64,000 bases of DNA from Amphiura filiformis (Eukaryota). Where the stretch lies: contig NC_092646.1 of the NCBI RefSeq assembly GCF_039555335.1, positions 36,795,911 through 36,859,910 on the forward strand. Direction: 5' to 3'. The notes beneath the pieces were generated by a model. It saw nothing but the letters and a program-made list of their open reading frames with translations, had not been told where the DNA came from and made no database searches. Below are positions 16,501 to 40,189 of this stretch, piece after piece. Every line of letters starts with the position of its first letter. Positions within the stretch are counted from its first letter, which is position 1. Position numbers and translations under genes: made by a program.

Positions 16501-16739
16501 TTGGTGTATCGATTTCCAGCAAACAATTTTACGTTGTTCCAACGTCGTATGAATGTCATCTACGTTGTACATACGTAAACTCGTATCTGTGTTGTGAAAG
16601 CGTTATTTCGGACGTTGATTTTCAGACGTTGATATAACGTCATTATGACGTTGTTTAAACATCAAGTTGTGAACGTATTTATTCAAAAGTCCTTATTACG
16701 TCCGAATGAATTACAGAAAGTTAAGTTCGCATGTGTTTA

Positions 16740-17850
16740 AAGGGCATTATATATTGCTCGGACAACATCATATCATTGGCAAGCTAATATTATGAGGACA
16801 ATGAAAATGACTCCTTTTTTGAGAAAATAAGACGTTTAAAATAGATATTCCGCAAAAACCAACTGTAAGCGGTGAGTTCCTTCGAACGAGACAAATTTGA
16901 CCTAGAAAAAAGTGTGACGTCATGAAATGAAATGTGCCCGCTTTGAGAGAATGGACTGTAAATACTCTCAATGCACAGAACGTATTTTCTTTGTTATCAG
17001 AAAAAGAAAACTCTGAATCAAGTATCACAAATTTAATGGTTTTAAACATATGGATAAAATCAGACCGCTTCATTATTATATATTAGTAAATTGTGATATT
17101 ACAATTCATATGTATATCAACATCATGAGAAATATTTGGACTAAAAAATAAAATAAAAAATATTTTAGAGCAATACCGTATTCACTCGATAGTTAGCACA
17201 TGTGCTTACTATCGAGGGCTTTTGAAAACGTGCAAAAACGAAAAAAAATGAACAGCGCCATCCACAAAAGTGACAAAAGTGTAAAGGGTTTTGAGCAAAT
17301 CATCGATACACATAGCTATATACGAACAATTATACCTACAAATTTGTGTGTTAACTACATTAGCTCAGTTGGTAAAGCGACAGAATTTGAATCATCTTAA
17401 GGGGGTACTACACCCCTGGCCAATTTTATGCCTATTTTTGCATTTTTCTCACAAATTATAGCGTATTGGTGACAAATAAGATATGTATATTACAGGGCAA
17501 GGACTACAACTACTGCACTGAAAATTCAGCAACTCAAGGCAAGTAGTTATTGATTTATTGATCAAATATTGGTTTTCCCTCATTTTTGACTGTAACTCCA
17601 CAACTGTTGTCTGTGCTGAAATAAAATTTCCAGTGCAGTAGTTGTAGTCCTTGCCCTATAATATACATATCTTACTTGTCACCAATGCGCTATAATTCGT
17701 GAGAAAAATGCAAAAATAGGCACAAAATTGGGCAGGGGTGTAGTACCCCCTTAAGAATAGCGAACTGAGCAGGAGTTCGAGGCTCGTTATAAACTTTTCC
17801 GTTGTTTAATTTTTATTTGGGGGTTTGAGCTTTTCTTGATAAATTTAATC
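16740..17850. repeat. Segment present again in inverted orientation at 24070-26040 (large inverted segmental duplication arms)
   Basis: 16740-17160 is the reverse complement of 25640-26040. 17160-17850 minus the MITE is the reverse complement of 24070-24420. Sub-blocks recur at 25120-25270, 33150-33310 and 34255-34470. Confidence 0.6.
17401..17750. mobile_element. piggyBac-like MITE (family C, 350 bp, TIR GGGGGTACTACACCCCTGGCC, TTAA flanks)
   Basis: Flanked by TTAA at 17397-17400 and 17751-17754. Termini are perfect 28-bp inverted repeats. A second copy lies at 41451-41801. The paralogous empty site is at about 24150-24170 (cttaag-aagaccgaactgagc). Confidence 0.65.
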
Positions 17851-17984
17851 TTTTTTTGCTTTGTTTTTACCTAGCTGGGGTTTACACCCCCCAGCTAGGT
17901 ATTGTAATCGTTCGGGTTCTTCCGCTGGCAACAAACCACTGTAATCTTCCCGTTTTCTTCCGCTGGCAACTAAGTGAAATTGCA

Positions 17985-19270
17985 CATGTTTTTGTACTTT
18001 ATGCACCAAACCCTCTATCTTTTTAACCAAATATCCCACAGAGTTGTGCGATATGTCAAACTTTTCCTCTGGTCATAAGGAACAAAAAAGTCAGTGGTCA
18101 CATCTCTGTAGGATCATTGGTTAATGAGATATAGTCACTTTTTTGTACTTTGTGTACTTAACCCTCTATCTTTTTAACCAAATATCCCACAGAGTTGTGC
18201 GATATGTCAAACTTTTCCTCTGGTCATAAGGAACAAAAAGTCAGTGGTCACATCTCTGTAGGATCATTGGTTAATGAGATATAGTCACTTTTTTGTACTT
18301 TATGCACCAAACCCTCTATCTTTTTAACCAAATATCCCACAGAGTCGTGCGATATGTCAAACTTTTCCTCTGGTCATAAAGAACAAAAAGTTAGTGGTCA
18401 CATCTCTGTAGGATCATTGGTTAATGAGATATAGTCACTTTTTTGTACTTTATGCACCAAACCCTCTATCTTTTTAACCAAATATCCCACAGAGTCGTGC
18501 GATATGTCAAACCTTTCCTCTGGTCATAAAGAACAAAAAAGTTCCTGGTCACATCTCTGTAGGATCATTGGTTAATGAGATATAGTCACTTTTTTGTATT
18601 TTATGCACCAAACCCTCTATCTTTTTAACCAAATATCCCACAGAGTCGTGCGATATGTCAAACTTTTCCTCTGGTCATAAAGAACGAAAAAGTCAGTGGT
18701 CACATCTCTGTAGGATCATTGGTTAATGAGATATAGTGACTTTTTGTACTTTGTGTACTTAACCCTCTATCTTTTTAACCAAATATCCCACAGAGTTGTG
18801 CGATATGTCAAACTTTTCCTCTGGTCATAAGGAACAAAAAAGTCAGTGGTCACATCTCTGTAGGATCATTGGTTAATGAGATATAGTCACTTTTTTGTAC
18901 TTTGTGTACTTAACCCTCTATCTTTTTAACCAAATATCCCACAGAGTTGTGCGATATGTCAAACTTTTCCTCTGGTCATAAGGAACAAAAAAAGTCATCT
19001 CTGTAGGATCATTGGTTAATGAGATATAGTCACTTTTTGTACTTTATGCACCAAACCCTCTATCTTTTTAACCAAATATCCCACAGAGTCGTGCGATATG
19101 TCAAACTTTTCCTCTGGTCATAAAGAACAAAAAGTCAGTGCTCACATCTCTGTAGGATCCTTGGTTAATGAGATATAGCACTTTGTGCATTTAACCCTCT
19201 ATCTTGTTAACCAAATATCCCACAGAGTCGTGCGATATCTGATATGTCAAACTTTACCTCTAGTACGTGA
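17985..19270. repeat. Satellite array, ~150-bp unit x ~8.5
   Basis: Unit ...ttttgtactttatgcaccaaaccctctatctttttaaccaaatatcccacagagt[c/t]gtgcgatatgtcaaacttttcctctggtcataa... repeats with about 150-bp period. Confidence 0.85.
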
Positions 19271-19599
19271 AGACGGCCTGATTGGCGCGAGGTTCATATC
19301 GGTACGTATGCACCAAATATGTATCTTGTAAACCTTAATAAGTTTTGCCTTGCCTTGCTTCGTAATCCTGTTTGGGCTGGACAAAAAATTTTTTTCCACT
19401 TTTCCCCAGTTTCCCTATGGTATTTCGTCTTTAAGCTTACTGATATACAGGGATTGAATACGAGTGTCACGGCCCTGGTTAGTGTGCATTCAAATCAGAG
19501 ATCCCTGTTCAAGGCCATCTTACTTAGCCGTCGGAAATGATTGCAAATTACACATTTGTAATCATTTTGACCACAAAATATGATGTGAAAACACAGGTA

Positions 19600-20045
19600 A
19601 GCAATGTGATAAATTTATCTGTACACATTGTCGCACTCTGAGTGACGTATGGTATATTTGCAACCCTGTGGTGGATTTGCGAACAATTTGTCGACATAAT
19701 GATGTTCGCGGAGAAACGGTGGCCCAAAATGCGTTATTTTTGGTAATATGCAGACGAATGGCCAAATTAATAGAAAAATACCTGTGATAAATTTATCTGT
19801 ACAAATTGTCGCACTACGAGTGACATATGGTATATTTGCAACCCTACTGTGGATTTGTGAACAATTTTTCGACATAAATGACCTTCGCGGAAAAACGGTA
19901 GCCCAAAATGGGTTATATTTGGTAATATGCAGACGAATGGTCAAATTAATAAAAACAATACCTGTGATAAATTTATCTGTACAAATTGTCGCACTCCGAG
20001 TGACATATGGTATATTTGCAACCCTACTGTGGATTTGCAATTGAC
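19600..20045. repeat. Tandem repeat, ~178-bp unit x 2.5
   Basis: cctgtgataaatttatctgtacaaattgtcgcact... recurs at about 19605, 19783 and 19962. Confidence 0.8.
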
Positions 20046-20350
20046 CTGGGGAACATATTGGAACATTTTGCACGGGTCAGCTCAAAAGACATCACTAAGT
20101 TCTGGGGCCAAATCTTAGAATTGCGTTATCTGGACATCTGTAAGAGGTACAGGGCGCAAACTCGGTGACAACTCATGACCAGGGGTGAATTATGGAACAT
20201 CTTGCAGGGGTCTGGTCAAAGGTCATCTGGGTCAAATCTTAGAATTGCATTTTCTGGACATCTGTGAGGAGTACAGGACTCAAAACTCGGTGACAACAAA
20301 CCTCATGACAGGGGAACATTTTTGGAACATTTTGCAGGGGTCAGATACCT
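20040..20350. repeat. Tandem repeat, ~115-bp unit x ~2.5
   Basis: Repeated ggaacat[a/t]ttggaacattttgca[c/g]gggtca...atcttagaattgc[ga]tt[at]tctggacatctgt[ag]a. Confidence 0.7.
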
Positions 20351-20379
20351 CCACAATACCAACATGCCCCAGCTAGGTT

Positions 20380-20520
20380 TGTGGTCTATGACCACCATTT
20401 GCCTCTAGTTCATTTGGTTTCTTTATTGTTTCTTATTTGCTTTATTTTGTTTTGTTTTTTCTTTTCTTTTCTTTTTCTTCTTTCTTTTTTGTTCTATTCA
20501 TACTGGGGTCATGGGCTATT
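20380..20520. repeat. Inverted repeat partner of 23925-24070
   Basis: The poly-pyrimidine block ...tttctttattgtttcttatttgctttattttgttttgttttttcttttc...ttctattcatactggggtcatggg is the reverse complement of 23925-24070. Confidence 0.7.
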
Positions 20521-21604
20521 TATTCAACAATGTAATTGGGTATGCCCTCAATGTTAAAATGAGGTGGTCATGGTCCTCTTTGCCATTACACGCTACAGAA
20601 ATTCCATATTTTTCAAAGGCTCTGATGATGGTTCCCTTCTATCAAATGACTATCATTGAAGACTGAGTTCCGCAGTCTATTTCAAAATACTGACTTCGTT
20701 TTACATCAAGAAGGACACAATAACTGCGACTTAAACGTGATATGGACATGCTTTTTAACCGCAAAGAAATCGTTTGCATTTTATAATTTTAACCTTATCC
20801 ATTATACTTTTATGATTTTGTGCAATACGAAAAATAAAAAACAAAGAGCGTGTTTATAGTGAGCCAGATTATGCGGTATTTAGCTGGACTGCCACGCAGT
20901 CTATATTTGTTTATGTTTGACTAACCATTGCAAATCTAGACTACGCGGTAGTTTAGCCAAATAACGGAAAGATTGTCTCACTATAAACACGCTCATTGTG
21001 TAACATGTAAAACCCCGCTCCGATTCAATTGTGCCTGTTACATTGAGCGTGTTTATAGTGAGCCAGATTATCCGGTATTTAGCGTATAAGTACATCTTAT
21101 ACGGTATTGGTCGCCACTATAAACAGACCAATAGCGCTATTTGCCGCACATATTATACGGAACTGATATCCTTCGATATCGATGGATATTGCAGTATATT
21201 TATTCCGTATACGGCCACTATAAACAGACAGGGATTAACGATACCGTTATTCAAGGAAGTGGAGCAGGGTTATATAACTCTCCGAGCTCAAATTTGTCAC
21301 TGTAATAACATATCACCTATAAAATATGGTACGGTACTGTGGCAAAAATGTTAAAAAATAGGCCGGTATCGTTTCGACGGCAAACTGTTTGAAATTGGCA
21401 CTATATCCGTGTCTCCCACATTGCATTGCGGTGACCTCGAACACGCTGAGTTCAACCACCTCGGATTCAGAATAGCGCTATTGGTTGCCACTATAAACAG
21501 CCGAGATAACGGATAAGTCACATTCCATCCTAATCCCATATGCGCATAAGGATACCGTATAAATACCGTACACCACTATAAACACGCTCATAGTGTGCTT
21601 TATT

Positions 21605-21870
21605 GAATCAGGGACCTTGTATAGAGGCCCTGCATGAAATTATCGATTGGCTCCAGACAAAGGATTTGAACCGGTGTCCTTCACCGTAGTTATAGCGGAG
21701 TGCAGTCCATTCAATCAAATGTTGTCATCAACCTATTTGATCGTAATGCAGGGTTATATGTGTGAGACGAACTGTCGCGGTAGATTGCTATCATGCTTTT
21801 ATTGAATGCATTTGAGTAGTCCGCCATATTTACGGGATGATACGTCACATGCAAGGCCTCTATTCAGTAT
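21605..21870. mobile_element. MITE-like element with TIR cttgtatagaggccctgcatg
   Basis: Inverted termini at 21611-21635 and 21848-21867. It contains a tRNA-T-loop-like ggttcaaatcc, but no cloverleaf can be drawn. Confidence 0.4.
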
Positions 21871-23670
21871 CAAAGTTACGTAATGTTACTATGTCAACGG
21901 GATCACGCTCTTGAGTAATGAACCACGATCGAAACGATCACCACACAAAGTATATGGCACTCGAAGGCATACCAAAAAAGCGTGATCCGGTAACCAAGAG
22001 AATTACGTAACCACTTCGATGCTGAATATGGAGGGACTGTAAACGGCTTCCACCCATTGTACCATGCGAGTTGCTGGTTTACAAATTATCCTCAGTTGAG
22101 CAAGCATACGTTGATCAATAGACCCTGGTACGAATCCAAGCACAGTTACAACACAGCGCGTGTCTTGTCTTGTACATTGCGAAATGAGCCTACATGTTTG
22201 CCTATAATGACAGACTCTAGAAATGCCAACATAAATCTTCAAAGAACATCATCTTAAGAATTATTTCAGTATCGAAATCAGAAGGAATACCAAGCGTACG
22301 GTGTACACATTCCAGAAAAAAATATAATTTTGTTTGTTCTAGCATTCTGTATCTCCACAAAATTATCACATTTTGTCTTCAAAATCCTATGTAAATGATT
22401 TTCCATGCTACACAGAAATTGTGTTCGACAAAAGATAGACATTTTACACAATTTTGCATATCTTAAAAAAGATATTGGAATATTTTGATGTTTTTTTAAA
22501 TATTTAGTATAGGGCAACATGAGTAAATAATAAAATTCAAACATAGCGCACTCGGCGCAACTCGCATACAATCGAAGGTCGAAAAGATAATCTGATAACA
22601 ATATCTTGACAATAGCTATCAATAATCTGTTTCCAGTCCCTGATTGAATGGCCAAAAATACGCCAACAATGACATAACAGCAAGCCAAAGACGAATTCTG
22701 ATCACCAAGTGGGTTGGAGAAGTATGGAAGGACATTACAATGAAGGGAACCAGGCATAGATCTACTGTACATATTTCGAGGAGCATAACAAAGACCAATT
22801 GGTGTCGTATAACCTTTGACATGCATGCATTCTTTTGTCGAGAGTGACATGGTCTTTCAATTCGTGCCGAGTGTCCTTGTCAGACTTGACTATGCATCAG
22901 TGGTCATGAAATTAACCTCTGCCCCAGTAATCCCAAGCAATTGTCTGAAATTGCTCCTCGGAGATGTATCATACTCCTCAAATGATAGTCATATAACGAC
23001 CAAAAGATAAATGACCGACTATCATTGAGGACTAAGTTCCGCAGTCTAGGTGAAGCTGAGTCCTATCAAAATCAAACAGGAAACAATTTCGTGCCTAATT
23101 TTAACACCGGGATTTTTTACAAATGTATATCCAAGAACTATGTTTTTATTCAACATTTTTTATTCAACATTACTGAAAAAAAAAAGTTTTTTATATGACC
23201 GAGAATTTTCAAAGCAAAAACGCGTATTTCTGAATTGTGCCGAGTTCAACATGTATCGACCGACTTTTAGCACGACTATGCGTAACAATTCGCAAGGGAA
23301 ATGTTACGTGTAATCCGATTATCACTGTCAGCTGGATCACGCTTTTGAGTTCTGCACCACGATCGATATGATCGCAACACAAAGTCTATGGCATTCAACG
23401 CCATTTATTGTTCTATTGTGTCCCAGCAGCTATGTCTGCCATTGAGGTGTAGCATGGGTGTAGGAATGCATGAAATTGGATGTAGCGGTGAAATTTTAAA
23501 GTTAATCCAATTATTTGCCAGCGAAGTGTTACGTGTAATCCGATTATCACTTTGTCTATTAGAACGAAATGAGCGTATTTATTTGCCTTCAAAAAGGTGC
23601 GTGATCCAGTTACCAAGGAGTTATGTAACCACTCCACTTTTAATCCAACTGATCTTTAATTGTTCCTTTG

Positions 23671-23712
<42 letters not shown>

Positions 23713-23924
23713 AAAGTCCACAAAAAAACCTTCAAGAATTGTCAAATGTAGGCCTATATTCGAAGTTAAAAAAAAAGACCTGTAAAACAAACATGGCAGA
23801 GAAAAAAAAAATCTAAATAGTGAAATACTGAACAGATTTGAACTTAATCGAGTCTCGAAGTCCGGCGTTTTCCAAACTGAGCTAATGGGGTTCAGACATA
23901 CATTTGCAGGTTGAATTGTTCGTA

Positions 23925-24070
23925 TATAGGTATGTTTTGAATATATAACCCATGAACCCAGTATGAATAGAACAAAAAAGAAAGAAAAGAGAAAAAGAAA
24001 AGAAAAAACAAAACAAAATAAAGCAAATAAAAAACAATAAAGAAACAAAATGAAAAACAAAGATTAAATT
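23925..24070. repeat. Inverted repeat partner of 20380-20520
   Basis: Reverse-complement identity read directly. Confidence 0.7.
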
Positions 24071-24409
24071 TATCAAGAAAAGCTCAAACCCCAAAATAAA
24101 AATAAAGCAACGGAAAATTTTATAACGAGCCTCGAACTCCTGCTCAGTTCGGTCTTCTTAAGATGATTCAAAGTCTGTCGCTTTACCAACTGAGCTAATG
24201 AAGTTAACACACAAATGTGTAGGTTTAATTGTTCGTATATAGCTATGTGTATCGATGATTTGCTCAAAACCCTTTACACTTTTGTCACTTTTGTGGATGG
24301 CGCTGTTCATTTTTTTTTCGTTTTTGCACGTTTTCAAAAGCCCTCGATAGTAAGCACATGTGCTAACTATCGAGTGAATACGGTATGTTACCGCAAGATC
24401 TTAAAATTT

Positions 24410-25650
24410 GAGCGTGATTAATATTGTATTTATTATGCAAATAAACAATTTCAATGGGCCGGGAGCTAACCTTTTGTTGTCCATTGAAGGTCGCGCATTT
24501 ATGCATGAACGAACATGAAAAGAGCTGGCTTATGTGTTATGTACTACTCGTGAACATAGGGGAACGGCGGGTTATCCCGAACGCGGGGTAATCCCGAACG
24601 GTGCTGTCAAGAGGTTGGGGGTTCTTCTCAAAAATATTTAAAACGAAATTAGCCACTTTTGACTTTTGATCATCGGTTTTCTGATGCGTAGGAAATATTG
24701 TAGTGATAAAGAGGGGTGGATTGTACAATTAATAAGACAGGACGATTGCTTAAAGATATGACGTGACCATATCGTGTTGATATTAATAGCTTATCAGTAC
24801 AAGTAAGAACAAGTAATACATGAGTGGTGGGGTAACGGCCGTCAAGAGTGTGATGTATTTTATCTGCGTTGATCTACAGAGCTATATGTATCATGAGCTG
24901 GATATGAACTAATCTTTCACCGAGGTTCTAGAAATAAATTAAAAGTTATAATCAAAAATTCAATTCTTTTTAAAACTCCAAATTGATTCTTCAGTGAGCT
25001 TTCCAGTACCGTTCGGGATTACCTCCCAGATCGCGGGGTAATCCCGAACGACGCCATTTTCTTTGTTTCATCATATCTTCTAGCTAATTAATTAAGGTTT
25101 AGTTAATGAGAACGTGCTTATAATTAAAGTATTACCCACTCTTGATATTGGTATGGTTTATTCTACCTTACGTAATAAGGTAACGTCACATAGTTACGTA
25201 ATTCCAACGTTATTTTAACGTACCTGGACATGATTTTAAAAAGCCCTTTTGAAACATTCGGTAATGACGTCGTGGTATTTACGTCTTAAGGGCATATCTA
25301 TTGCAAAAACAAGTTTAACTCCATTCGAGGAGAATAATTATTACATTTCAAGTTGACACTCGTTGCAATTTTTTTATGCATATTTCTCCTGAAAAAAGAG
25401 AAATCGTGTTGATAAAGTGGGGAGAGTGGGGTAATCCCGAACACCTTTTCATATTATTATTAAGAGTGGGATTACCAGTAGTTTCCCTATGTTCACGATA
25501 ACACATGAGCCTAGAGCTCTTTTCATGTTCGTTCATGTATAAATGCGCGGCCTTCAATGGTAAAGAAAAGGTTAGCTACCGGCCGATTGAAATTGTTTAT
25601 TTGCATAATAAATATAATATTGATCACGCTTAAATTGTAAGCTCAAAATA
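24410..25650. mobile_element. Non-autonomous TIR element (~1.2 kb) with ~200-bp terminal inverted repeats and repeated ggggtaatcccgaacg motifs, inserted in the inverted copy of the 16.7-17.9 kb segment
   Basis: 24400-24610 is the reverse complement of 25430-25650. The gcggggtaatcccgaacg motif occurs at 24585, 25010, 25030 and 25425. The element is absent from the paralogous arm at 17160. Confidence 0.5.
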
Positions 25651-26383
25651 TTCTTTTATTTTTTAATCCAAATATTTCTCATGACGTTGATATAAATTAC
25701 ATATGTATTGTGATATCACAATTTACTAATATATAATAAAGAAGCGGCTGATTTTATCCATATGTTTAAAAACCATTAAATTTGTAATACGTTGAGAGTG
25801 CATTGAAAGTGTTTACAGTCCATTTTCTCAAAGTGGGCACATTTCATTTCATGACGTCAAACTTTTTTGTAGGTCAAATCTGTCTCGTTCGAAGGAACTC
25901 ACCGCTTACAGTTGGTTTTTGCGGAATATCAATTTTAAACGTCTTAGTTTCACAAAAAAGGAGTCATTTTCATTGTCCTCATAATATTAGCTTGCCAATT
26001 ATATGATGTTGTCCGAGGAATATACAGCCTGTCTCAAAAAAAATTGTGCAAGTAAAAAGCGCCCTCTTTGGCAATTAGAAAATATCGTTGTGACATAATG
26101 CTTACATCAACGTCAAGGGCGTAGTCTTACAACAAAAACACTATAAAATGTTCTCTTAAGTTTTTTTTAAAGACAGGAGGGATTTGGCTGTGTAATCCTG
26201 GCAAAGTGGTAGTGTCATTTTTGTTTTGGGATTTGATACCAGTGTGGAAAACTGTAAATGCTGATTAATAACAATCGCACAGTCAACTAAAAATGTTAAA
26301 CTGTATTTTCAATTGGAATACATATAACGTCTTATTTCTAGCCAATCTATTTTTGTTACTCGCTCTTTTCTTTTCTACGGTAG

Positions 26384-26542
26384 CGTTCTGGGGCGCATGG
26401 GAAGGATGGGGTTTATGTAGTGTAGCGTGTGGTGGAGGGAAACAGTACAGATACAGGAAATGCTACTACGACGGAGAATATCTCTCTGGATATTGCCCAG
26501 GATCACACTACGAGACGATAACATGCAACACAGAGGATTGCT
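26384..26542 (+). CDS. Copy 2 TSR-A exon (intact, 159 nt, phase 1-1)
   Basis: Acceptor ctacggtag|cg. It encodes (A)FWGAWEGWGLCSVACGGGKQYRYRKCYYDGEYLSGYCPGSHYETITCNTEDC, ending at the donor t|gtaagt. Confidence 0.55.
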
Positions 26543-27212
26543 GTAAGTAAAACATTTTTTTCTACCGACGCGTGAATTATGACGCCTTTTGCGACATATA
26601 CAGCTTCTCGTTTTGTGGAAACTATGATAGATAACTATAGATTCACTGAGTAGGGTAAAGTACATTGATAAATATGCCTATGCAAATCGGACATACGGTT
26701 CTCATAATAGTAATACATCGATTTATATTTTTTTGTATCTTATTGTTTCATCAATATTCAAGAGAGTCAGTGAGCTAAATTGACTAAAAAAGGCTCATTA
26801 ATATGTAATGTTTGCCAATATTTTGTTAAAAATCAATGCATTAATGTTCAGAGTTTTAATCTTGCTGACTTGTCTTAAAAACTGGTCTAATGTAGGCATA
26901 TACCGTATTATATTGTCTAGACGTCCCCTTATTTGTATTGCATTATAAATAAGTGTTTATGCATATTAGCTGTAATATATGTAATCATACGTATCTTGCA
27001 GATTCAATTCCGAATCAACAGAAACTTTGGAAATAAGCTCTTTTCGTGGGTATCTATTATGCTAAAACGGTGATGCTAAAAGTACGAGAACCCATTAATA
27101 AAACGCATTTATTCTATAAGTACAATTTTGTAATTTTATTTATGGCAATTCAAAGAAGGTCCAAACTTGATTATACTAACTTTATGATAATTGGGTATAT
27201 TTGAACTTATAG

Positions 27213-27347
27213 GTGGGTCATGGGGATCGTGGTCCGAGTGCAAATGTTCTGCTGGAATTGGTCACCAAATCAGATCCAGAACATGCCGTTACCCTTCCCA
27301 TGGTTACTATTACACCACACGTACAACGGAACGCAAATGCGATTGTC
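27213..27347 (+). CDS. Copy 2 TSR-B exon (135 nt, phase 1-1)
   Basis: Acceptor cttatag|gt. It encodes (C)GSWGSWSECKCSAGIGHQIRSRTCRYPSHGYYYTTRTTERKCDC, ending at the donor c|gtaagt. Confidence 0.5.
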
Positions 27348-27663
27348 GTAAGTGTAACCAATCTTTTTCTCTTTCTTTTTACAATTTCAGATAATGTGTA
27401 TATAAATATATATTATACGCAAAGAATTTTGCACCACATTCTTCTATTACTAAATTATGTATACTACTTTACTTCTTGTAATGGATAGCCATTATTTTAA
27501 CACAAATGAAATTGCATTATTATTATTGGAATGGTATGGGTTTGATGGAAATGTAGAAGTCATTTTGGTGAGGAAATACTTGAAACATTTACATAATTTA
27601 CATTCTTTGGTGCAACTGTCTTAGATGATGCCAAAATTAAAATCAGAACTGCTGTAGCGACAT

Positions 27664-28240
27664 CATCACTAGCCATTTGAAACCCATTTGGAGAGACAAG
27701 AAAATCTCAATGACAACAAGAATGAGCCTCCTGAGAGCATTGCTTGTTTCAATCTTCCTGTATGGGTGTGAAACCTGGACGAAACCTGAAACCTAAATGC
27801 CGAGATGGAAAAAGGATTAATGCGTTTAACTGCACGTGAAGGCTCCTCCAGGTCCAATACTCTACACATATATACTACCAACAAACAAGGGCAATAATGG
27901 AAAGTTTCATTGGAGAGCACAAACATCTGATCTCCATTGTGAAAAGAAGACAGCTCCAGTGGTTTGGCCATGTGGAAGAACAGTCTAGCTAACACCATTC
28001 TGCAGGGAGGTACAGATGGGGTAAGGAAGAGAGGAAGACCAAAGAAGACATGGATTGATAACATCAAAGAACCGACTGAATTGAACTTTGGAAATTGTGC
28101 ATCTCTAAAGCCAGCACTTAACCAGTGTGCCATTCTGCTGATATACTTATATCGCATAATGAATATCATTCGCCTATCGAGAAAACGCAAAAGCCTCATT
28201 GTGACCTCAAGGGTTGGTGGTACCCTGATTTTTAAATAAA
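27664..28240 (+). mobile_element. Non-LTR (LINE, CR1/L2/RTE-like) retrotransposon 3' fragment, frameshifted
   Basis: Translations give ...LLRALLVSIFLYGCETWT... and ...RRQLQWFGHV...RKRGRPKKTWIDNIKE..., which are the characteristic C-terminal motifs of LINE ORF2. Stops and frameshifts are present. It sits in the copy 2 intron between TSR-B and Hint. Confidence 0.55.
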
Positions 28241-28671
28241 ATGTTTGGGGAAAATATACGCTGCATCACCTAGATGATAATTGAGTTACTTAAGATGACT
28301 TCTTTAACAAGTACTACTTGGCTTTAGGCTTTAAAAAAGTTGACTTGCCTTTATCGACCGACCCAAAAATCTGAAAAACCAGAGTCGCCATTTTTTTCTT
28401 CATTTTTTTTAATGTCAGATTTTGATATTTTGGTTTATAATTTCAGAATATTTGTTTTATTTATGGTTTACTGTATCTATACAAATTCTGACTCGATTTC
28501 TGCGTTTGTGTTTCATATAAACCCTGTGACTACATTTAAAACATGTTCTGAGTACCTAAGGCATTGACATTGAAACATTACGCATATATTGCATTATGTA
28601 GAAATCAGTACCTTCCCATTTCCCCTCAACTCTAGCCAACCACCACCAAAATCCTACTCACGCCACTGCTA

Positions 28672-29084
28672 TAATTAACGACAGAGATAAAAAGATTTTA
28701 TCGCGTCTGATGTCACTGTCAATTACGATCCTTGATTGTTTACACAGGTTGATAGCGGGTAAAAGGAAGACCGATCTATCTGGTGCTGATCGGAGAAAGG
28801 AATAGCAGCAAATGGCAAAAATTTACGTACTTTTACAAGGCAAAAATCTGCTTTTTTAGGCATTGTTGACATGGTGCCTTCGCGGAAGAAGGTTTCCTAC
28901 TATAAAGACCTAACTTTTGAGATGGTTTGCATGTTTGAAGGTGTAAAATTAACAATAAGGCGCCCGGTTATACCGTCGGGTTCAGCAAGTCATCATCACG
29001 ACACTTGTAAACAAATCGTGCTCGAATTTGATTGACAGATGACGTCAGACGCGATAAAATCTTTTTATCTCTGTCTTTAATTAT
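28672..29084. mobile_element. MITE (~410 bp, ~55-bp TIR taattaa[c/a]gacagagataaaaagattttatcgcgtctga...), TA-flanked, in copy 2 intron
   Basis: Left terminus at 28673 and right terminus at 29025-29082 are reverse complements. Confidence 0.6.
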
Positions 29085-29195
29085 AATGGCCGAATTGGGT
29101 TGACCGTTTATTTAATTGGCAGTAGCGAGACGTTTTCTTTTCTCTCTCGTTTTAAATCCATTTTCTTTTCTTTTTCACTTCTTTTTTTTCAACAG

Positions 29196-29848
29196 CATCA
29201 TGTTTTGCTTCCGACTCTATGGTTCGCGTGAAAATACTCACCAACGATGATACGAAAATAGAACGTAAACGAATGGATCAACTGAAAGTAGGAGATAACG
29301 TGGAAAGCTTTGATCCGGAAACCAACTCGGTAGCATTTTCCAAAGTGTACTTCATATCTCATGAAGATGATACCAGCAACTCCTTTCGCTTGATAAAGTT
29401 AGTGTTCGGTTTCGAGGATGAGAAAGAGCTATCTCTTCGTCTGCATTCGAATCATTTGGTGTACGCGTGCAGTGTTGAGGAGAAAGCTGAACCAAATGTA
29501 GCACCCATCACTGATTCCTGTCGTTATCCACCGATGAATCCAGTAACCGCTGAAAGCGTGCAAATCGGCGATATCGTGTGGCTGAGAAATTCTGCCGGTG
29601 AATTCACGCCAAAACCAGTGATCGACATCGGTGAGTCGTGGAATGGTATTCGACATCCAATGACTCTTAACCATTACATTGTTGTAGATGATGTGTTGGT
29701 GTCTGTTCATATGTATGACGAAGGGCTATACAGGCAGGTCACGGCTCCGTTGAGATTTCTGTATGGCATCAGCTCGTCTATCACCGACACAAGCCTTGTT
29801 AAGAAGCTGGTCCAAATGTGGGATCATGTTGAGGGAAATTTCTTGTAA
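29196..29848 (+). CDS. Copy 2 Hint-domain exon
   Basis: Acceptor ttttcaacag|ca. It encodes (P)SCFASDSMVRVKILTNDDTKIERKRMDQLKVGDNV...VVDDVLVSVHMYDEGLYRQVTAPLRFL...VEGNFL, ending at stop TAA at 29846-29848. Confidence 0.6.
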
Positions 29849-30264
29849 GTGATTAGAGACACTGGTTTGGATTAAATATTAAGAAACTTTAACAATATTG
29901 GTAAAGTAACCCTATCATCAACTACATATCACTACTTATGCATTAGACATTTTATATGTTGGTTTGTCGTAACCGTCAAGAGATCAACATGTTTTGATCG
30001 GGCGTTTTACTCCTTTCTGTGCTTTGGTCTTTTCTATTCAGTTTGAACAAAGTTTGAGGAACAAATGCATACAGCACTAATGATAACATGATTTCGATGA
30101 GGCTACGAAAATTTAAAAGCTGGCATCGACTGTAACCACAGACACCCGGTATCTTCAAGTCAATGGTAAGTACTTAATTGGTTATAATGTTTCTGACAAA
30201 TTATTGATGAGTGGTGATAATACGTTTGTGAAGGTTGCCATTCATCAAGGTTTAAATATTGAAA

Positions 30265-30616
30265 TTAAACATAAAACTGATCAACTGGACTCACATTTAT
30301 TTGAGAGGCTACAGTATCGCACCTAATCCAAGGTGCATCTTCAGGCCGTCTGATGATCTGGCGGCAAAAGGTCGTTGACCTGTGACAAGGTGGTGTTGCC
30401 AGAGGTCGTGGATCTTGAGTCGAACTTCTTAGGAATGTTCTTGATGACAGAAGTGTAAGCCCCCGCCAAGTTATGGCGAAGACCGTCACCCCTGTTTAGT
30501 GAAGGTTGTTCTTTCTTGACGTAAATTGCTTCTTTGACGCCCCTTTCAAACCACCTGCGTTCTCTGTCTAAAATCACAACATCTTGGTTGTCAAAAGTGT
30601 GATGTGTACTGTCCAA
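30265..30616 (-). mobile_element. Retroelement fragment with GIY-YIG-nuclease-like C-terminal motif (Penelope-like element candidate)
   Basis: The minus-strand ORF reads ...VVILDRERRWFERGVKEAIYVKKEQPSLNRGDG..., which matches the E-A-x-x-I...P-x-(L/Y)-N tail of GIY-YIG endonucleases. The block 30225-30625 is an insertion relative to the paralogous copy 1 flank (15150). Confidence 0.4.
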
Positions 30617-31189
30617 ATGCGTGATAAGTTTGACGACAAAATGTACGAATTAATGTGTTTTAATTTTATTGCATATATCGTTTTATGACTGCGTACAATT
30701 TATTGCCCACCCATTTCTCAAGATACACCCCTTTGATATCACTGACTTTATCATGTGCAGAGAAAGTAGGGAGATTACGATCCTTTAAAATAGGAGATAC
30801 CTGGCCATTTTTTGTATAAGTTTAGAATGATTCCGTTTTTACATAATTTTAATTTAAAGTGGAATAAAGCTAAATTTAAGAATTGAACTTTTCTCAAAAT
30901 CAACTGATATTACCAAACTGATGTAATAAAAATATTGCTTTCTGGGAACCTGGTTGTGTTGGCAAAAAACACCATTAAGTGTTGTGCAGTATTGTTCTTA
31001 ATATCTGATATTATGCCAACGAAACAGAATTTATCCAGATGATCTGATGGGAGAATCATCAAAATTTAGTTTTGCGTAATCTTGGTTTTTCAACAGTCTT
31101 TGTGAATGTAAAGGTTAACCAAATTAGGATCTTAAACATTCGTCAGAACGAAGTTCCTTAACTATAATATATTGTTATAGACATGCTCT

Positions 31190-33155: not shown

Positions 33156-33655
33156 CCGATTTTTAAGTCAGCGTACCCGTAACCCAATTCACGACGTTCG
33201 CTAACGTTGTACTTAGGTTGTGATAAGGTAACGTCGCAACGCTAATATAAAGTACCGGACATAATTTTAAAAAGCCTTTTGGAAAAATTCGGTAATGACG
33301 TGGTCATCCCATTGAATATTAGGCCCATAATATGTTTCGTTGGGCGATATATGTTGGAGATGAGAGATACGACGACGAGATACTAAGACACGATGCGACG
33401 AAGGTTAACACAAAGGCATGATGGATGAGATACGATGGCGAGATGCGAGGGCGAGATACGAAATAATACCAATAAAATTTTAAATGCAACCTGGGAGTCT
33501 TTGATTTTTTTTGGCAACCCATCACTATTTTCACAAACATCACTCAACGTTTGTCTATTGGGCGCATTGGTCATTATTACAAATCCACCCATCGCAGTAT
33601 ACCAAAATCGCTGAAAAGGTACCCCCAAAACCGTGACACATATTCAAGTACATAC

Positions 33656-33998
33656 CGGGGGTCACTCCCATTGTGGACTGTACACCACCCGCGATAATCA
33701 ACTTTTGAAAAGCACCCTAAGGATTTAACCCATGGGTAAAACGATACCCTAAACAGGTAACAGCGCCTGTTTTCACGCCCTAAACTGGGATTTTATTCCT
33801 TGCATCAAATTTCATACCCTAAATTTCGTTTCCGCGTATTTGCCATTGCAATTTTGCTACCCTTTTTTCCAATTTTTCATGTTTTTGACACCCTAAACAC
33901 GATACGCGCGTATCGTGCCTACCCACAAAAAAACTACCCTTTTTACGCGTTTTTATTATCGCGGATGGTGTACAGGCCACAATGGGAATGACCCCCCC
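33656..33998. mobile_element. MITE with ~40-bp TIR gggggtcactcccattgtggactgtacaccacccgcgataat
   Basis: Inverted termini at 33658-33700 and 33955-33996. The homologous flank at about 57080-57110 is uninterrupted, so this is an empty site. Confidence 0.6.
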
Positions 33999-35350
33999 CC
34001 CCGGGAAAATGCAAGCTGGAAAGCAAAATAATAAAATCGTTGGGAATGAAATCAATCCACGTCACGTGGTCTACTATATCATGCAACACCGCTTTTGCCA
34101 CAATTATAATTATGTACTTCCTATTGTAATCATGGTAATGTGTACTTTGATTTATACATGATTGTAAAATCGTACAATGAATTGAAATTAAAATAATATG
34201 TACTGATAAAAAGTCATGACAATTGTTTGTTCAACTATTTGTGAAGTCAATGTATATCGATCGTTACAACGTCGTATAATTGTCATCTCATGATCTACGT
34301 TGTAAATGCGTAAACTCGTATTCGTGTTGTGACAGGGTTATTTCGGGTGTTTATTTTCGGACGTTGATATAACGTCATTTTGACGTTGTTTCGATGTCAA
34401 GTTGTGAACATATTATTCAAAACTCCCTATTAAGTCCGGTCGAACGTTGTAACAACGTATGACTTACAGAAAGTTAACTTCGTACGTGTTTAAGGGGAGA
34501 GTGGAGAGGGCGTTTGGTGATGCGTATATTATGAAATTTGTTTTGTTTTTCAGTTACATAAATCCACGCCTTTTTTTAAGAGCGCAGCTGTAAATATTTT
34601 TCAACCCCTGGCTGGAATATTAAACTTTATGTATCCCTTCGACAGTTTGCACTGCATTGTGGGAAAAACATAAATAGGCTATTTGTTCATATTCTATATA
34701 TGTTGCTCGTAATTCTGCTCAGTGGCGTAGATTTCTTTTCGCCATGGGGGGGATGGGGTTTGAAAAAAATTCTAGCAAACTCAGCACCTTTTGGCGCCAA
34801 AACAAAGTAATTTTTCGCGAAGCGTGCGAAATATTGTACTGGTGAAATATTGTACAAAAGTTAAATAAATTCACCCGAAGCGTGAAAAATTTGGCATTTT
34901 TTAGGTTAAAATGGCCAAATATGGGGTTAATTTGGTCAGAAACCCATAAACAGGCGTCAAGATTGGGGGATGATTGTATGGACCATCCCCCCTGGTAAAA
35001 TATGGGGGGATAAATCCCCCATCCCCCGGGGTCTACGCCTATGAAATTTCTGCTCTCCACCCTGCAGTGCGTAATGGAGTACTACCATCGGCTGCTGTGG
35101 ACTACTGGTAAGTATTTGTTGTAGTGTTACCAAACATAAAATAGGCCAATGTATCATGCAGGAAGAAGCTCTGGTTACCTTTACACAAGCACAAACTTGT
35201 TCCTTGAGATAAAAACAATATACATTTCACTTTCGATCATTTTGTTTGTGTTCCTGGAGAGGTAAATGCTGGTAGTGAAGCTTAGTGACATCTTTAACTG
35301 TCACATGATTTCCAGTTTATCCAATAATTTCACTTGCCTCGGTTCATTTC

Positions 35351-35356
35351 TATAAA
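35351..35356 (+). promoter_or_regulatory. TATA box 62 bp upstream of the copy 3 ATG
   Basis: tctataaatacttgcc, with the same spacing and context as the copy 1 TATA. Confidence 0.55.
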
Positions 35357-35412
35357 TACTTGCCTATAGGAATTAACTGTTTCATTATATTGATGCGGCT
35401 TATCGAATAATC

Positions 35413-36103
35413 ATGGCGCTTACGATACTGTGCAGTTTTCTTTTATTGAGTGCATTTTTATACGCTCCAACTGTCTACGGATTCCAAGATCTAAACGACA
35501 ATGACGCGAGGTATATTGAAGGATTGTACGCAACCTTTCGTAGCCATTTTATTGCATTATGTTCGAGTAACAACCTCAACTTGAATATGACTTCGGTTCA
35601 ATTTGGTGTTTTAACGATGGGCAGAATATCAAACGCAAATGATTATCGTCCATTGCCTCTTCTTTTTTCCAGCACCCTCCCGTGCGCAAATACTTGCCCT
35701 GTGACAGCTCCAAACTACCATGCTGCTGTTCCATTACGCTTAGGTTCATCAAATTACAGGACCCATTGTGAAATACAGTTGATAGACGCCTTCGATCGGT
35801 TGAGAGGTTCTTATACAGGTTTAACAGATGTCTACATACTAACATACTTCAGTCCGTGCAATGATTGTGCTGAGAGACTGCGACGTCTGGCACAACGATG
35901 GCCTCAAATTAACTTCCACATTGGTTACATGACGGAATATCGTAGACCAATGCAGCAACCAAGCGGGTCCGGACAGCAATGGGTGCCAACCCTGACTAGA
36001 ACTAGAAATATTCTTCGGAATTCGCAGAACATCTTCTTTGGAAATGTAAGAGGTTTCTGTCAGCCGAGAGGAAAACGGAATGCAAATGATTGTGACCTTC
36101 CTG
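35413..36103 (+). CDS. Copy 3 exon 1: signal peptide + deaminase-fold domain + RGKR site; GTAAGA donor
   Basis: N-terminus MALTILCSFLLLSAFLYA... The zinc motif is HCE...(29 aa)...PCNDCAERL. RGKR lies at 36067-36078. The donor is ctg|gtaaga at 36104. Overall identity to copy 1 is about 65% with indels. Confidence 0.65.
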
Positions 36104-36827
36104 GTAAGATTTTAAAACGATAACGCTTTTTTAAGGGTTGTGGCTGTTGGAATAAAGACCAAACAAACAAATTCTTGTTTAAGCCGTAATATTGTAGTCT
36201 TTCAACCCTTTCACAACTTCAGCTGTGTAACTTACAAAAAATCCCGCTAAAAAGTGGTTCTTTTAATTTTAGAAAATACATTAAAAATCGCATTGGACTT
36301 TTTGTACTGATCGTACTATAAATGACCACCAGCCTATAATGTTCTGATCACATTTGTTCTCTATTGTTCCTTGCCCGGAAATATGCCCACGCAGTCAGGG
36401 ACCGTGCTTTTAAAACGCCCGCCAGATCACACAATAAGGCCATTGAACTGTGTAGTGGTCATACGTATTCGCGGAAGTAAAACGGTAGCACTGTCCCTTA
36501 TCGACTCATGAATAATGTGTGGAAACAGGTCAAGGACGGCATTCTGATAATTCTAATCCTTTCTTTTGAGGTCAATAGAATAAAGAAAGACCTTGAACAC
36601 AGGTGCCTGGTTGTAGATAATCATCAAAGCTGCTGGCATATAAGATATTTCGAGGAGGCAGCGCTTATTATTTCTTGTAAACACAATCTAATATGGTACT
36701 CACTACATGTAGAAGAGATATAGCTTCATGTTCAGTGTAATCAATTAAAATACTATGACTGGATATCAAAAAAATCGCGAGGCATTCCTTCTTGTTATGG
36801 ACGACAAGTATTAATTTTTATATTATT

Positions 36828-38700
36828 ACTAGCGGGATACCCGCGCTTCGCGCGGGTCCCCGCCAGATGGGAGCGTTCACCATAACAGGAATAATTACTG
36901 AACAGGTAGAATCATTGAAAAGGTACATTTTATTTTTCTAAACCTGTCTCTTCTTACACTTTCTTTTTTAGTTTCTTTTGCTTAGCTTGTGATTTTCCGT
37001 TTCCATGTTATTTATTTATTTAACCTCGTTCCCATTATTTTCTAAATCTGTTCTTTCTTACATTTCCCTTTAGCTTCTTTGTTTATTTGCTGCTTGTGAT
37101 TTCCCGTTTCCATGTTTTTTATTTAATTCTGTTCTTATTATTTTAGCTTCTTTTTTCTTACATTTCCTGATTAGTTTCTTTCCTTCTTTGTTTCGTTCCC
37201 GTTTCATTTAGTTACTTTAACTCGTATTTTTTTGTCCTCATTTTAATTTTATTTTTCTTCTTAGTACCGCTTCATGTTGTTTATACAACAAACATCTTTT
37301 TCCCGTATTTATTCCTCTCATAGCGTATCTGCGGACGTGTTCACCCGTTATCATAATCCCGTGACCCGTCCATGTACCTTTTTGCCCTTTATTTTTCCTT
37401 CTTTCCGTATTATCATGTCCCACATGATCATGTCCACTGGTCTCTGGCTCGCAGTCGTGTGGCTCTGCGCCGTTTACGCGCCCATTGGCGTAGTGCGCAT
37501 TACGCACGAGACGCCGACACGCTGCCGGCCAGCTGCAGTGACGCGTAGGCTGACAACCGATTTTCATAACAAAAAACCCGTTTTTACCTATATTTTCACT
37601 GTTTTTGCAGCCAATTCTTGACCGTTTTCAACCAAATAAAGTTTAAACACGTTCCCGTATATTCATCGATCTCCCGTATGAATTTGGTGACATTTGGATC
37701 GAAACTGACGGAGCCTTTATAGGCATACATAGATAGATACATAGATACAACATTCGCCTATTTATAGTAAGACTAGCGGGACACCCGCGCTACGCGCGGG
37801 TCCCCGCTAGGTGAGTAAATGGGAGAGCGTTCACTAAAACAGGAGGAATTACTGAACAGGTAGAATCATTGAAACGGTAAATTTTATTTATCTGAACCTG
37901 ACCCTCCTTAAGCCTACGTTTCCATTTGAACTTCTTTCTTTCTTTTTAGTTTCTTCTACATGGGCCAATTTTGTTCCATTTAAAAAAATTCTGCTGCTAA
38001 GCTTGCGATTTTCCGTTGACCATGTGTTTTTATTTATTCAATCCCGTTCCCGTTATTTTCTAAATCTGTCCTTTCTTACATTTCCTTTTAGCTTCTTTTT
38101 TTATTTGCTGCATAGCTTGTGATTTCCCGTTTTCATGTTATTTATTTAATTCTGTCCTCAGTTTAATAGCCTTTTTATTTAAATTTCCTGATCTTATTAT
38201 AGCTTTTTTTCTTACATTGCCTGAAGAACCCACATACTCGTACAGCCTGTTTGTCCTCATTTTGTTTTCTTTTTTATTTATAGTAGGCCTACCTCTTCAT
38301 GTTGTGTGTACTTTTTAACACACATCTTTTTCCCGTATTTATTACGCTACGGTCGTTAATATCATTCATTACGTGTCTCTGCGTCGTTTACGCGTGCCAT
38401 GGCGTAGTGCTGCGTTACCCGCGCGGTATCGCTGCGACACGCGAGCGGCTTGGCATTAGATACGCCCGTGCGACGCGCAGGGCTAGCTTAGTAACTGCCT
38501 CCTTTTTTTGTTCACCTAGTATAGCAACGGACCACATTTTCACTGATTTTGAGGCCAATTCTTGACCGTTTTCAACCAAATTTTCGCATTACCGTCTCCG
38601 TATATTCCTCAATCTCCCGTATGAATTTGGTGACATTTGACGAAACTGACGGAGCCTTTATGTGCATACATAGATAGATACATAGATACAACATTCCCCT
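36828..38700. repeat. Two tandem ~930-bp units, each headed by an imperfect GC palindrome (ctagcgggayacccgcgctwcgcgcgggtccccgc) and containing a CpG-rich core
   Basis: The units 36828-37775 and 37775-38700 align. The hairpin heads are at 36829-36866 and 37775-37812. The CpG-rich block is gtttacgcgcccattggcgtagtgcgcattacgcacgagacgccgac. Both strands are open in the GC-rich core, so the ORFs there are not credible. Confidence 0.6.
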
Positions 38701-40189
38701 ATTTATAGTAAGATGACAAAATCCAGTCCCTTCTCAATTGATTAGGCTCCGGGATTAGGCTTTCTTTTCGAAAAATAAATCATAGGGCCTAGAGGCCATG
38801 ATATAGGCCTAACCATATCCCTGGCCTAACCTAAACCCATATTCGGTATGCAGAAACCTTCACAGTCCGGGTGACGCTTGCACTCGCATCGCATTAAACA
38901 GGCAAAGATCGCTAAACTGAGGTCTGCTTCAATTGCCAACCTTTATCGAGGGGCGAGTTTGAGGTTTTATAGTCATCTATTACCTATACCATTTTCACCC
39001 CGATATGACAGTGACGTCAACGCGTTGAAACGACTGTTTCGCTCGCGCATCTATGCGGCGTCTTTAAGCGCGTGCGTATTTACACCAGCGCTTTGATCGA
39101 ACTCTAGCGAGTGAGGCTGCACCTAATAAAATTTGTACAGTACTGACGTGACGTCACTGTCACATCAGGGTGAAAATGGTATTGAAAATCGCAAACCAGC
39201 CAAATTTGTCATAGGTTTGAATAGCTAGTAGAAAAACCGTGAATATAGTGTCAGCAAGTCTCACACAACGCGATATATTTAAAAAGTATATTTTTAGAGG
39301 GCCTACGCTGGTTCGTTTGATTCTAGTTTAAAATCTGTTCATCAACTAATGTGGATGGTATTTTGGTTAACAAAAACGATACTGTTAAAAATATCGGTAT
39401 TTATGCAAGCGACATTTCTAATATGTAAAATGCATTGAAAATTGCCGTCTAAAGAGTACATAAATTAAAATCGCGAAGAGTAATAGTAACAATAACTATC
39501 TACATTTCAAGCGGAAACGCTTTTCAAAAACATACCACCTTTTTTCGGGCAATCGCTGAAACCGAAATATGAAATTCCAGGCCATCTGTAAAAAAGTGCG
39601 TGGGCGGAAATGACCATGAACTTGGGTCACCAAAACAAATGTTTATATTGGTGTCAGGCCTTTCATAGTGATACAACAATTAGCCCCCAATATTGGCTTT
39701 TATTTGAACCGTTATTTGTTAAACTGCGATTTTTTTAAATGGACAAGTCTTCCTTTTTGCTTCTGCTTTGGACATCCACGCGTTATGTTTAAAACAATCG
39801 TTTATATATACAATAATGGTGAAAACTTTTCAATGGCTTCAATTAGGCTTTCGTTTCACCAATTTGCGGCTTTTTCAAACTAAAATAGTATCCAATAATA
39901 GTGCTAAATTTGATCCACAAATGGCTTCAGGTGCATGGGCCTTCATTGTCCAAAGATGTCTCACCTCTATTGCCCCCCGGACGATGGTTGCCCTGATATG
40001 TAAGATTTGTAGCCCTTTTTGTACTTTTTAGCCCATTTTTGACCATTTGCGTCAATGTGTTTCCCCTTAAAAATTGCATTTCCCCACTTTGTCCACCCTC
40101 TGAAAAAGTGCTTGCTACGCACCTACCTCTGAGGGGTCTCAAACCCTCTCAAACACCCTCTCTTCCTCCACTTTTCTGATAGGGTCGAC

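Follow-up and report, generated by a model that had tools for sequence, protein, structure and literature searches.

How did one unit of a tandem gene array come to consist of its last three exons, and does what is left of it still act as a gene? This question is raised by copy 2 of a gene family that forms four units on the plus strand of a 64 kb stretch of the genome of the brittle star Amphiura filiformis (contig NC_092646.1, hereafter the window). A full unit comprises exon 1, which encodes a signal peptide and an AID/APOBEC-like deaminase, followed by two exons for thrombospondin type-1 repeats (TSR-A and TSR-B) and an exon for a Hedgehog-type Hint module. All introns of the gene family are phase 1. 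In the full-length protein, by analogy with Hedgehog, the Hint/Hog module would undergo self-cleavage at its first cysteine and so set free the secreted N-terminal portion. The listing of open reading frames (ORFs), self-BLAST and tblastn place the four units as follows:

Copy 1, plus strand: exons at 5408-6149, 9661-9818, 10619-10759 and 12850-13538.
Copy 2, plus strand: exons at 26384-26542, 27213-27347 and 29196-29848.
Copy 3, plus strand: exons at 35413-36103, 41060-41218, 42762-42929 and 48798-49456.
Copy 4, plus strand: exon 1 only, at 60850-61564, after which the window ends.

We consider, with a probability of roughly 0.6, that copy 2 is the relic of a once-complete unit, likely young and non-functional, whose exons have stayed intact through recency, gene conversion or both. 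Copy 2 is homologous to copy 3 from 26128 onward, a start that corresponds to 40767, inside intron 1 of copy 3. The first-pass annotation of this DNA, made from the sequence alone, had put this start at about 26140 (12 bp off) and had described copy 2 as retaining the TSR-A, TSR-B and Hint exons while lacking a deaminase exon and a promoter. This description is confirmed by the open exons and by three types of search, all negative for the missing parts. Exon 1 of copies 1, 3 and 4 encodes a hydrophobic leader that reads MA(L/H)(T/A)ILCSFL... and an HxE...PCxxC domain, whose best Pfam matches (SNAD4, APOBEC_N and NAD1, about 23 bits) are just under the cut-offs of 25-27. For copy 2, the domain, the signal peptide and the family promoter are all missing from the 13.5-26.4 kb interval that was searched. 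The relaxed tblastn search that had been proposed for 13.6-26.3 kb was run over this slightly wider interval with the three deaminase exons of the window and the 36%-identical domain of the P0002 protein as queries (word size 2, E up to 100); its best hit there has E=1.2. Profiles built from 4 and from 40 deaminase sequences, run with hmmsearch --max against six-frame peptides of at least 15 amino acids, reach at best E=3.7 in the same interval, versus 1e-123 to 1e-137 for the true exons. A DNA profile of the promoter and exon 1 (nhmmer) detects only 5291-6178, 35295-36132 and 60752-61592 and nothing upstream of copy 2, and a conserved promoter-proximal block of about 120 bp is found at the three exon-1 sites only. 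A scan of 25.9-26.4 kb for sigma-70 promoters and terminators also returned nothing, with a bacterial model that is irrelevant to a metazoan gene. Two weak deaminase-like matches (tblastn or HMM) elsewhere in the window were rejected as noise: one (52812-52898, minus strand, E=0.025 and 0.44) is inside a 360-bp tandem repeat, and the other (40972-41178, minus strand, E=0.018) is the antisense of the cysteine-rich TSR-A exon of copy 3.

The first-pass annotation reasoned that copy 2, if expressed, must use a different upstream exon and is otherwise a partial duplicate. Copy 2 is indeed a truncated paralog, and yet homology to the unit reappears far upstream of its first exon, in a collinear chain of blocks (left, position at copy 2; right, matching position at copy 3):

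13539-13827 = 29883-30139.
15081-15786 = 30150-31173.
16053-16456 = 33165-33482, in three blocks (16053-16100, 16281-16327 and 16374-16456).
16536-16744, plus strand = 34263-34497: the last upstream block of intergenic homology (blastn, 76%, E=2.5e-48), which marks the left edge of the missing segment.
26128-26383, plus strand = 40767-41059: the 3' remnant of intron 1 (blastn, 84% identity at aligned sites, K=0.18).

A subset of the blocks has matches, in unchanged order, in the spacer between copies 3 and 4 as well. The match at 34263-34497 is about 0.9-1.15 kb upstream of the ATG of copy 3, position 34497 being about 915 bp from it. An incomplete segmental duplication was thus rejected, since the intergenic homology of the unit (16053-16744 = 33165-34497) reappears beyond the point where such a duplicate would end. 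Because the collinear spacer homology runs up to 16744, a complete unit appears to have been duplicated and then to have lost about 6.3 kb. 'Partial duplicate' is therefore probably wrong as the origin of copy 2, and its truncation is probably a secondary deletion associated with a transposable element (TE). By comparison with copy 3, the missing interval is 34498-40766, which spans some 0.9 kb of promoter sequence, the whole of exon 1 and 4.7 kb of the intron that follows it. At the place expected for the promoter, for exon 1 and for the 5' end of intron 1, the window has instead:

16750-26024, no strand assigned: a 9.3 kb block of inverted repeats and satellites (inverted-repeat search and TRF).

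The earlier statement that some 12 kb upstream of copy 2 are occupied by satellites and inverted repeats is thereby given a structure. The two arms of the block (16750-17857 versus 26024-24055) share about 0.75 kb in inverted orientation, and each carries a different nested element. In the left arm this is a foldback miniature inverted-repeat transposable element (MITE) at 17395-17756; in the right arm it is a 1.25 kb element with 130-nt terminal inverted repeats at 24397-25644. The core holds a 150-bp unit repeated 8.4 times (17989-19238) and a 178-bp unit repeated 2.4 times (19605-20038). The longer ORFs of the block contain no Pfam domains. The left arm begins 5 bp past the end of the homology, and some 100 bp separate the end of the right arm from the point where homology returns; no target duplication flanks the block. 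The right breakpoint can be placed only within 26025-26128, because sequence turnover in intron 1 is fast, with only about 50 bp shared between copies 1 and 3. The simplest reading is a deletion that accompanied the insertion, or a rearrangement, of a foldback-type element. The self-complementary 360-bp foldback element nested in the left arm recurs at 41446-41806, in intron 2 of copy 3; the two copies are 94% identical, and the element so belongs to a recently active MITE family.

The arms of the block differ by K=0.047 over 705 aligned nucleotides, which is small compared with the K of 0.18-0.32 between the non-coding DNA of copies 2 and 3. The loss of exon 1 may therefore be recent, although the arms could pre-date the insertion. 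We rejected the use of the arm divergence as a firm clock for the deletion, since the arms of a mobile element may diverge before it arrives.

From these observations we infer the following order of events. A full unit would have been duplicated, and the resulting copy 2 would then have lost about 6.3 kb that held the proximal promoter together with exon 1 and the greater part of intron 1. The lost DNA would have been replaced by the 9.3 kb block, probably a foldback-type element or a rearrangement caused by one. The orphaned exons, left with neither the family promoter nor a family-type start codon, signal peptide or deaminase, would now form a transcriptionally stranded fragment; lacking these parts, copy 2 cannot on its own make the family product. 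Its exons may look intact if the loss happened recently compared with the divergence of the copies, if gene conversion or unequal crossing-over has acted on them, or both. The retained parts are:

26384-26542, plus strand: TSR-A exon, 159 nt, phase 1-1, with WxxWxxW and six cysteines (Pfam TSP_1).
27213-27347, plus strand: TSR-B exon, 135 nt, phase 1-1.
29196-29848, plus strand: Hint exon, Hedgehog-type autoprocessing, which starts with P-S-C-F-A and stops at TAA.
29849-30139, plus strand: presumed 3' untranslated region (UTR) and conserved downstream flank (blastn, site-pattern counts).

Together, the three exons form a frame of 315 codons without interruption. Their acceptors are AG and their donors GTAAGT, and the position and phase (all 1) of the splice sites are identical to those of copy 3. 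The TSR-A exon of copy 2 reads FWGAWEGWGLCSVACGGG..., with its six cysteines placed as in copy 3 (tblastn between the two exons, E=3e-19). The predicted product matches Pfam Hint (PF01079, 68.3 bits, E=9e-19, cut-off 29.7) and, in two stretches, TSP_1 (PF00090, 47.3 bits, cut-off 21.6). A processed pseudogene was rejected, as copy 2 still has introns 2 and 3 in the family's positions and phases, a tandem location and homologous flanks.

The exons differ strongly in how fast they have diverged. In amino acids, the Hint exon of copy 2 is 94% identical to that of copy 3 and 90% to that of copy 1, and its pairwise dN/dS values are 0.18-0.22. Where copies 1 and 3 agree, the changes private to copy 2 in this exon are 8 synonymous and 7 non-synonymous, which gives an omega of about 0.25 (binomial P=0.008), assuming a ratio of non-synonymous to synonymous sites of about 3.6:1. 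TSR-B is highly diverged (39-52% amino-acid identity between copies), with lengths of 141, 135 and 168 nt in copies 1, 2 and 3, always a multiple of three. The TSR exons of all copies have dN/dS values near 1 (0.4-1.25), with cysteines and tryptophans kept and lengths in frame. Across copies 1-3, TSR-A and TSR-B show 39-67% amino-acid identity between paralogs, versus 90-94% for Hint, and this fast divergence could reflect diversifying selection on a binding surface. TSR-A and TSR-B of copy 2 differ by 25-36% from their counterparts, enough for sequencing reads to be assigned to copy 2 unambiguously. If all of the approximately 59 substitutions in the copy 2 lineage were neutral, the probability of finding no stop codon would be about 0.07; judged from these sequence comparisons, selection therefore acted on copy 2 during much of its past.

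The ancestry of copy 2 is mosaic. From the intron before the Hint exon to about position 29620, 41 sites unite copy 2 with copy 3, compared with 10 and 18 for the other two groupings; in the 3' flank, 41 sites unite it with copy 1, compared with 15 and 12. These site patterns were counted over 29083-30139, compared with 12735-13827 and 48680-49715. Synonymous divergence in the Hint exon (0.15) is lower than divergence in the flanking non-coding DNA (0.17-0.32). Both observations are signs that gene conversion or unequal crossing-over operates in the array, a process that would be able to keep the exons of a dead copy healthy-looking. Downstream of copies 1 and 2, the repeat at 15081-15786 and 30150-31173 differs by K=0.06, whereas the adjacent 3' UTRs differ by K=0.19. 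The version at 30150-31173 has an extra 400 bp with a 91-amino-acid ORF (30341-30616, minus strand) that has no Pfam match. This repeat is probably a TE or a recently converted tract.

Several points weigh against copy 2 being a dead relic of a complete unit. The intergenic homology blocks could in principle be old dispersed repeats, as other copies of them were sought within the 64 kb window only. The three exons remain undamaged: their splice sites fit the consensus, and their cysteines and tryptophans are conserved. Had they evolved neutrally over the time that separates the inverted arms (K/2 of about 0.024, hence about 22 substitutions, and about 4 indels at the indel rate of the arms), the probability of finding them intact would be roughly a few percent. 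The remaining points come from neighboring sequence: copy 1 and copy 2 carry complementary defects, with exon 1 of copy 1 intact and its TSR-A exon frameshifted; exon 1 of copy 1 ends in phase 1, so that its join to copy 2 is in frame and the chimeric ORF is open; and a stretch of 31 codons upstream of TSR-A is open and ATG-started in copy 2 alone. That the truncation is an assembly artefact, with the block mis-joined or collapsed and a real deaminase exon upstream of copy 2, we regard as very improbable. Mis-assembly is notoriously common at long inverted repeats and satellites, and the block is placed exactly at the homology breakpoints, but its arms are non-identical (K=0.047) with different nested insertions, unlike foldback read artefacts; its flanks are unique and collinear with the other units; and copy 1 in the window is identical to RefSeq XP_072019146.1. 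The complementary damage leads to a second alternative, in which copies 1 and 2 would be one gene: a transcript from the copy 1 promoter (at about 5.3 kb) would splice exon 1 (5408-6149) over some 20 kb to the exons of copy 2, skipping the damaged 3' exons of copy 1, and encode a 562-amino-acid deaminase-TSR-TSR-Hint protein. The TSR-A exon of copy 1 has a 1-bp deletion (CCC to CC at about 9774; TGCCCxGG to TGCCGGG, 9771-9780) that leads to a premature TGA, and its Hint exon has a 1-bp insertion just before the ancestral TAA that extends the ORF by 11 codons (13494-13538). The NCBI model XP_072019146.1 covers only the 3' part of copy 1, starting from an internal ATG in the shifted frame, which fits a split gene, as do the HxE and PCxxC motifs retained in exon 1 of copy 1 (omega about 0.55), the constraint on the copy 2 exons and the phase-1 introns that would keep the chimeric splice in frame. 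Such a transcript, however, must bypass the strong acceptors and the 3' end of copy 1 and cross 12 kb of satellites and inverted repeats. TSR-B and Hint of copy 1 are themselves intact and constrained (16 synonymous and 15 non-synonymous changes), skipping TSR-A alone would give copy 1 an open single-TSR protein of 523 amino acids like the orthologue P0002, and the chimera is not in the 15-billion-protein collection. We find the split gene rather unlikely; copy 1 may simply be a second, differently damaged unit, or one rescued by skipping of TSR-A.

The open stretch next to TSR-A suggests another way in which copy 2 might be expressed alone, from a start codon within the intron remnant:

26293-26383, plus strand: ATG-started in-frame extension of TSR-A, in copy 2 only, MLNCIFNWNTYNVLFLANLFLLLALFFSTVA/FWGAW, hydrophobic and resembling a signal peptide; candidate start.

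The TSR-A frame of copy 2 is open upstream to 26272, and the same frame has stops in copies 1 and 3. In this scenario the former polypyrimidine tract (...VLFLANLFLLLALFFSTVA/F) would serve as the signal peptide of a secreted TSR-TSR-Hint protein, 345 amino acids long and without a deaminase. The first-pass annotation had named an alternative first exon as a thing to look for. Our scan of 13.85-26.38 kb for ATG-started ORFs with a hydrophobic leader that end at a phase-1 donor yielded no separate exon; the unspliced extension from the ATG at 26293 is the sole candidate in these 12.5 kb. Its peak hydrophobicity (2.84) compares with that of the genuine leader (2.73), a TATAAAA is present at 26142-26148 where copy 3 has CATAAAA, and Hog proteins with other secreted N-terminal cargos are encoded in the A. 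filiformis genome (P0003) and in other phyla (PMC2362128). Yet T-rich acceptor tracts encode hydrophobic peptides by chance, an open stretch of 31 codons is expected about 10% of the time in AT-rich DNA, the candidate lacks a basic n-region, its ATG is preceded by a short upstream ORF of 10 codons (ATG at about 26259), and its product is not in the 15-billion-protein collection. Because of the chance hydrophobicity of T-rich tracts and the short upstream ORF, we give this route low weight and consider it quite improbable. Taken over both routes, as the 3' half of a split gene with copy 1 or as a secreted TSR-TSR-Hog protein without a deaminase, a living copy 2 is unlikely on the present sequence evidence, though not negligible. 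A split gene, if true, would mean that two reciprocally damaged tandem duplicates complement each other via a 20 kb phase-1 intron, and a TSR-TSR-Hog protein, if true, could be a decoy or modulator of the deaminase-bearing paralogs. By exact look-up, none of eight products that the copies might encode (extended copy 2, copy 2 from an internal methionine, copy 3, the chimera, TSR-A-skipped copy 1 and three exon-1 ORFs) is in the 15-billion-protein collection, which is an absence of annotation and not proof of no expression. We thus retain the relic of a once-complete unit as the preferred reading of copy 2.

The introns of copy 2 have a history of their own. The independent insertions of a long interspersed nuclear element (LINE) and a MITE that had been noticed there were both recovered:

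27664-28240, plus strand: degenerate 3' fragment of ORF2 of a non-LTR (long terminal repeat) retrotransposon (LINE) in intron 3, from three-frame translation.
28672-29083, no strand assigned: MITE of 412 bp with terminal inverted repeats of about 50 nt (46-55) that are 96% complementary.

The LINE fragment is the C-terminal tail of a reverse-transcriptase ORF with two frameshifts. Its conceptual translation has 27 homologous proteins down to E=5e-48, some of them with RVT_1 or PF20049; the fragment is absent from copies 1 and 3 and has no match elsewhere in the window. The MITE is flanked by a TA target-site duplication (28670-28671 and 29084-29085), and copy 1 shows the empty site, ...CACTGATAATGA....

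Other parts of the array are also in flux. Intron 3 of copy 3 contains a full-length LTR retrotransposon of the Ty3/gypsy type (43145-47581, minus strand) with RVT_1, RNase H and integrase in its ORFs; its 160-bp LTRs are 98% identical, and it is a recent insertion that stretches the intron to 5.9 kb. In exon 1 of copy 3 (35413-36103), 45 non-synonymous and 12 synonymous lineage-specific changes give an omega of about 1.1, higher than the values for copy 4 (about 0.37) and copy 1 (about 0.55). This exon keeps its frame and catalytic motifs, and its omega indicates either relaxed constraint or positive selection. At the start of the window, 711-1345 resembles 61817-62140, the 5' part of intron 1 of copy 4 (72-83% identity), and no TSR or Hint exons are present between it and the promoter of copy 1. 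It may be the remnant of another, 3'-truncated unit with its exon 1 just upstream of the window. Scans of the whole window found no Rfam families and no tRNAs.

The gene model itself is supported by protein models and by an assembled contig. The intact copy 3 model has 558 amino acids, and a search with its spliced protein returned two A. filiformis RefSeq proteins and one Logan-assembled protein. In the 15-billion-protein collection, the family cluster consists of XP_072019146.1 and XP_072019147.1 only. The former (P0001) is identical to the translated last exons of copy 1. The latter is the NCBI model of a paralog outside the window and confirms the exon joins ...ICDLP/AFWG...GC/CESWG...GC/PSCFAS (slashes mark the junctions), as does the intron-less Logan contig L001 from a different sample (SRR27871395, 2296 nt), which has deaminase, TSR and Hint in one ORF (49-1470). 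Relatives of the deaminase domain are few: a profile search of 1.84 billion representative proteins recovered just 40 at E<=1e-3, of which 32 have matches to AID/APOBEC Pfam models and 5 contain a Hint module as well.

The start of the Hint exon, P-S-C-F-A-S with the catalytic cysteine first, is invariant in copies 1-3, P0002 and P0003. Where Hedgehog has T-x-x-H, the family has H-S-K-H, or H-S-N-H in copy 2, the lysine-to-asparagine change being found in copy 2 only. A family Hint profile built from five sequences weakly matches the Drosophila Hedgehog Hint structures 1AT0 and 6TYY over part of the module (E=0.002-0.006), and phmmer with the copy 2 Hint exon gave no match at E<=0.01 in the PDB. 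In the HMMER alignments, ISHED of the family lies opposite FMHRN of 6TYY and, shifted by one residue, opposite FMDRN of 1AT0; these N-terminal stretches score 3-4 bits only. The family may have a histidine at the position of the general-base aspartate of Hedgehog; 6TYY is an Asp-to-His variant.

Taken alone, copy 2 is a case of routine gene-family turnover, in which a TE-associated deletion decapitated one unit of an array. It nonetheless documents how the array evolves, through deletion, TE insertion and gene conversion. For annotation, copy 2 is not countable as a functional deaminase gene, and its intact exons will tempt predictors into chimeric models. The full-length family, with a secreted deaminase, TSRs and a Hedgehog-type Hint module, is more interesting than the truncated copy: the combination of deaminase, TSR and Hint was not found in the literature searched, in which no paper combined 'Hog domain' with 'deaminase'.

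The closest architectural parallel is with the Hog proteins, which include warthog, groundhog and quahog of nematodes and Hoglet of choanoflagellates and are known with various secreted cargos (Bürglin 2008, PMC2362128). As in these proteins, the family has a C-terminal Hint/Hog module that starts with the catalytic Cys-Phe, follows a secreted N-terminal cargo and scores above the Pfam Hint cut-off. The family differs in its cargo, an AID/APOBEC-like deaminase and two TSRs, and copy 2 differs further by having neither signal peptide nor deaminase; autoprocessing and any lipid adduct are putative. On the deaminase side, Krishnan et al. 2018 (PMC5889660) describe secreted AID/APOBEC-like deaminases (AADs) from vertebrates, sponges and dictyostelids only and mention no fusion to Hint or TSR. 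The parent family shares with the SNADs of that study an N-terminal hydrophobic leader, the HxE...PCxxC zinc motif and best Pfam matches to SNAD4, APOBEC_N and NAD1. However, the copies in the window score below the Pfam cut-offs, SNADs have been reported from vertebrates and sponges only and with no fusion to TSR or Hint, and copy 2 lacks a deaminase altogether. A deaminase and a HINT autoprotease likewise occur together in one secreted polypeptide in bacterial polymorphic toxins, whose deaminases are released by HINT peptidases (Iyer et al. 2011, PMC3239186). There, HINT is N-terminal to a C-terminal toxin, whereas the A. filiformis family has an N-terminal deaminase and a Hedgehog-type Hint module in a eukaryotic protein encoded by a gene with introns.

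As a locus, the array most resembles the tandem expansions of AID/APOBEC-like genes in echinoderms, molluscs and lampreys (PMC5889660, PMC5889659). Both are tandem, fast-evolving and lineage-specific arrays in which units are disabled by TE-associated rearrangements or frameshifts and sequence is exchanged by gene conversion. In contrast to those systems, copy 2 has lost the deaminase itself, and it is the non-catalytic TSR-TSR-Hint tail that survives, fully open.

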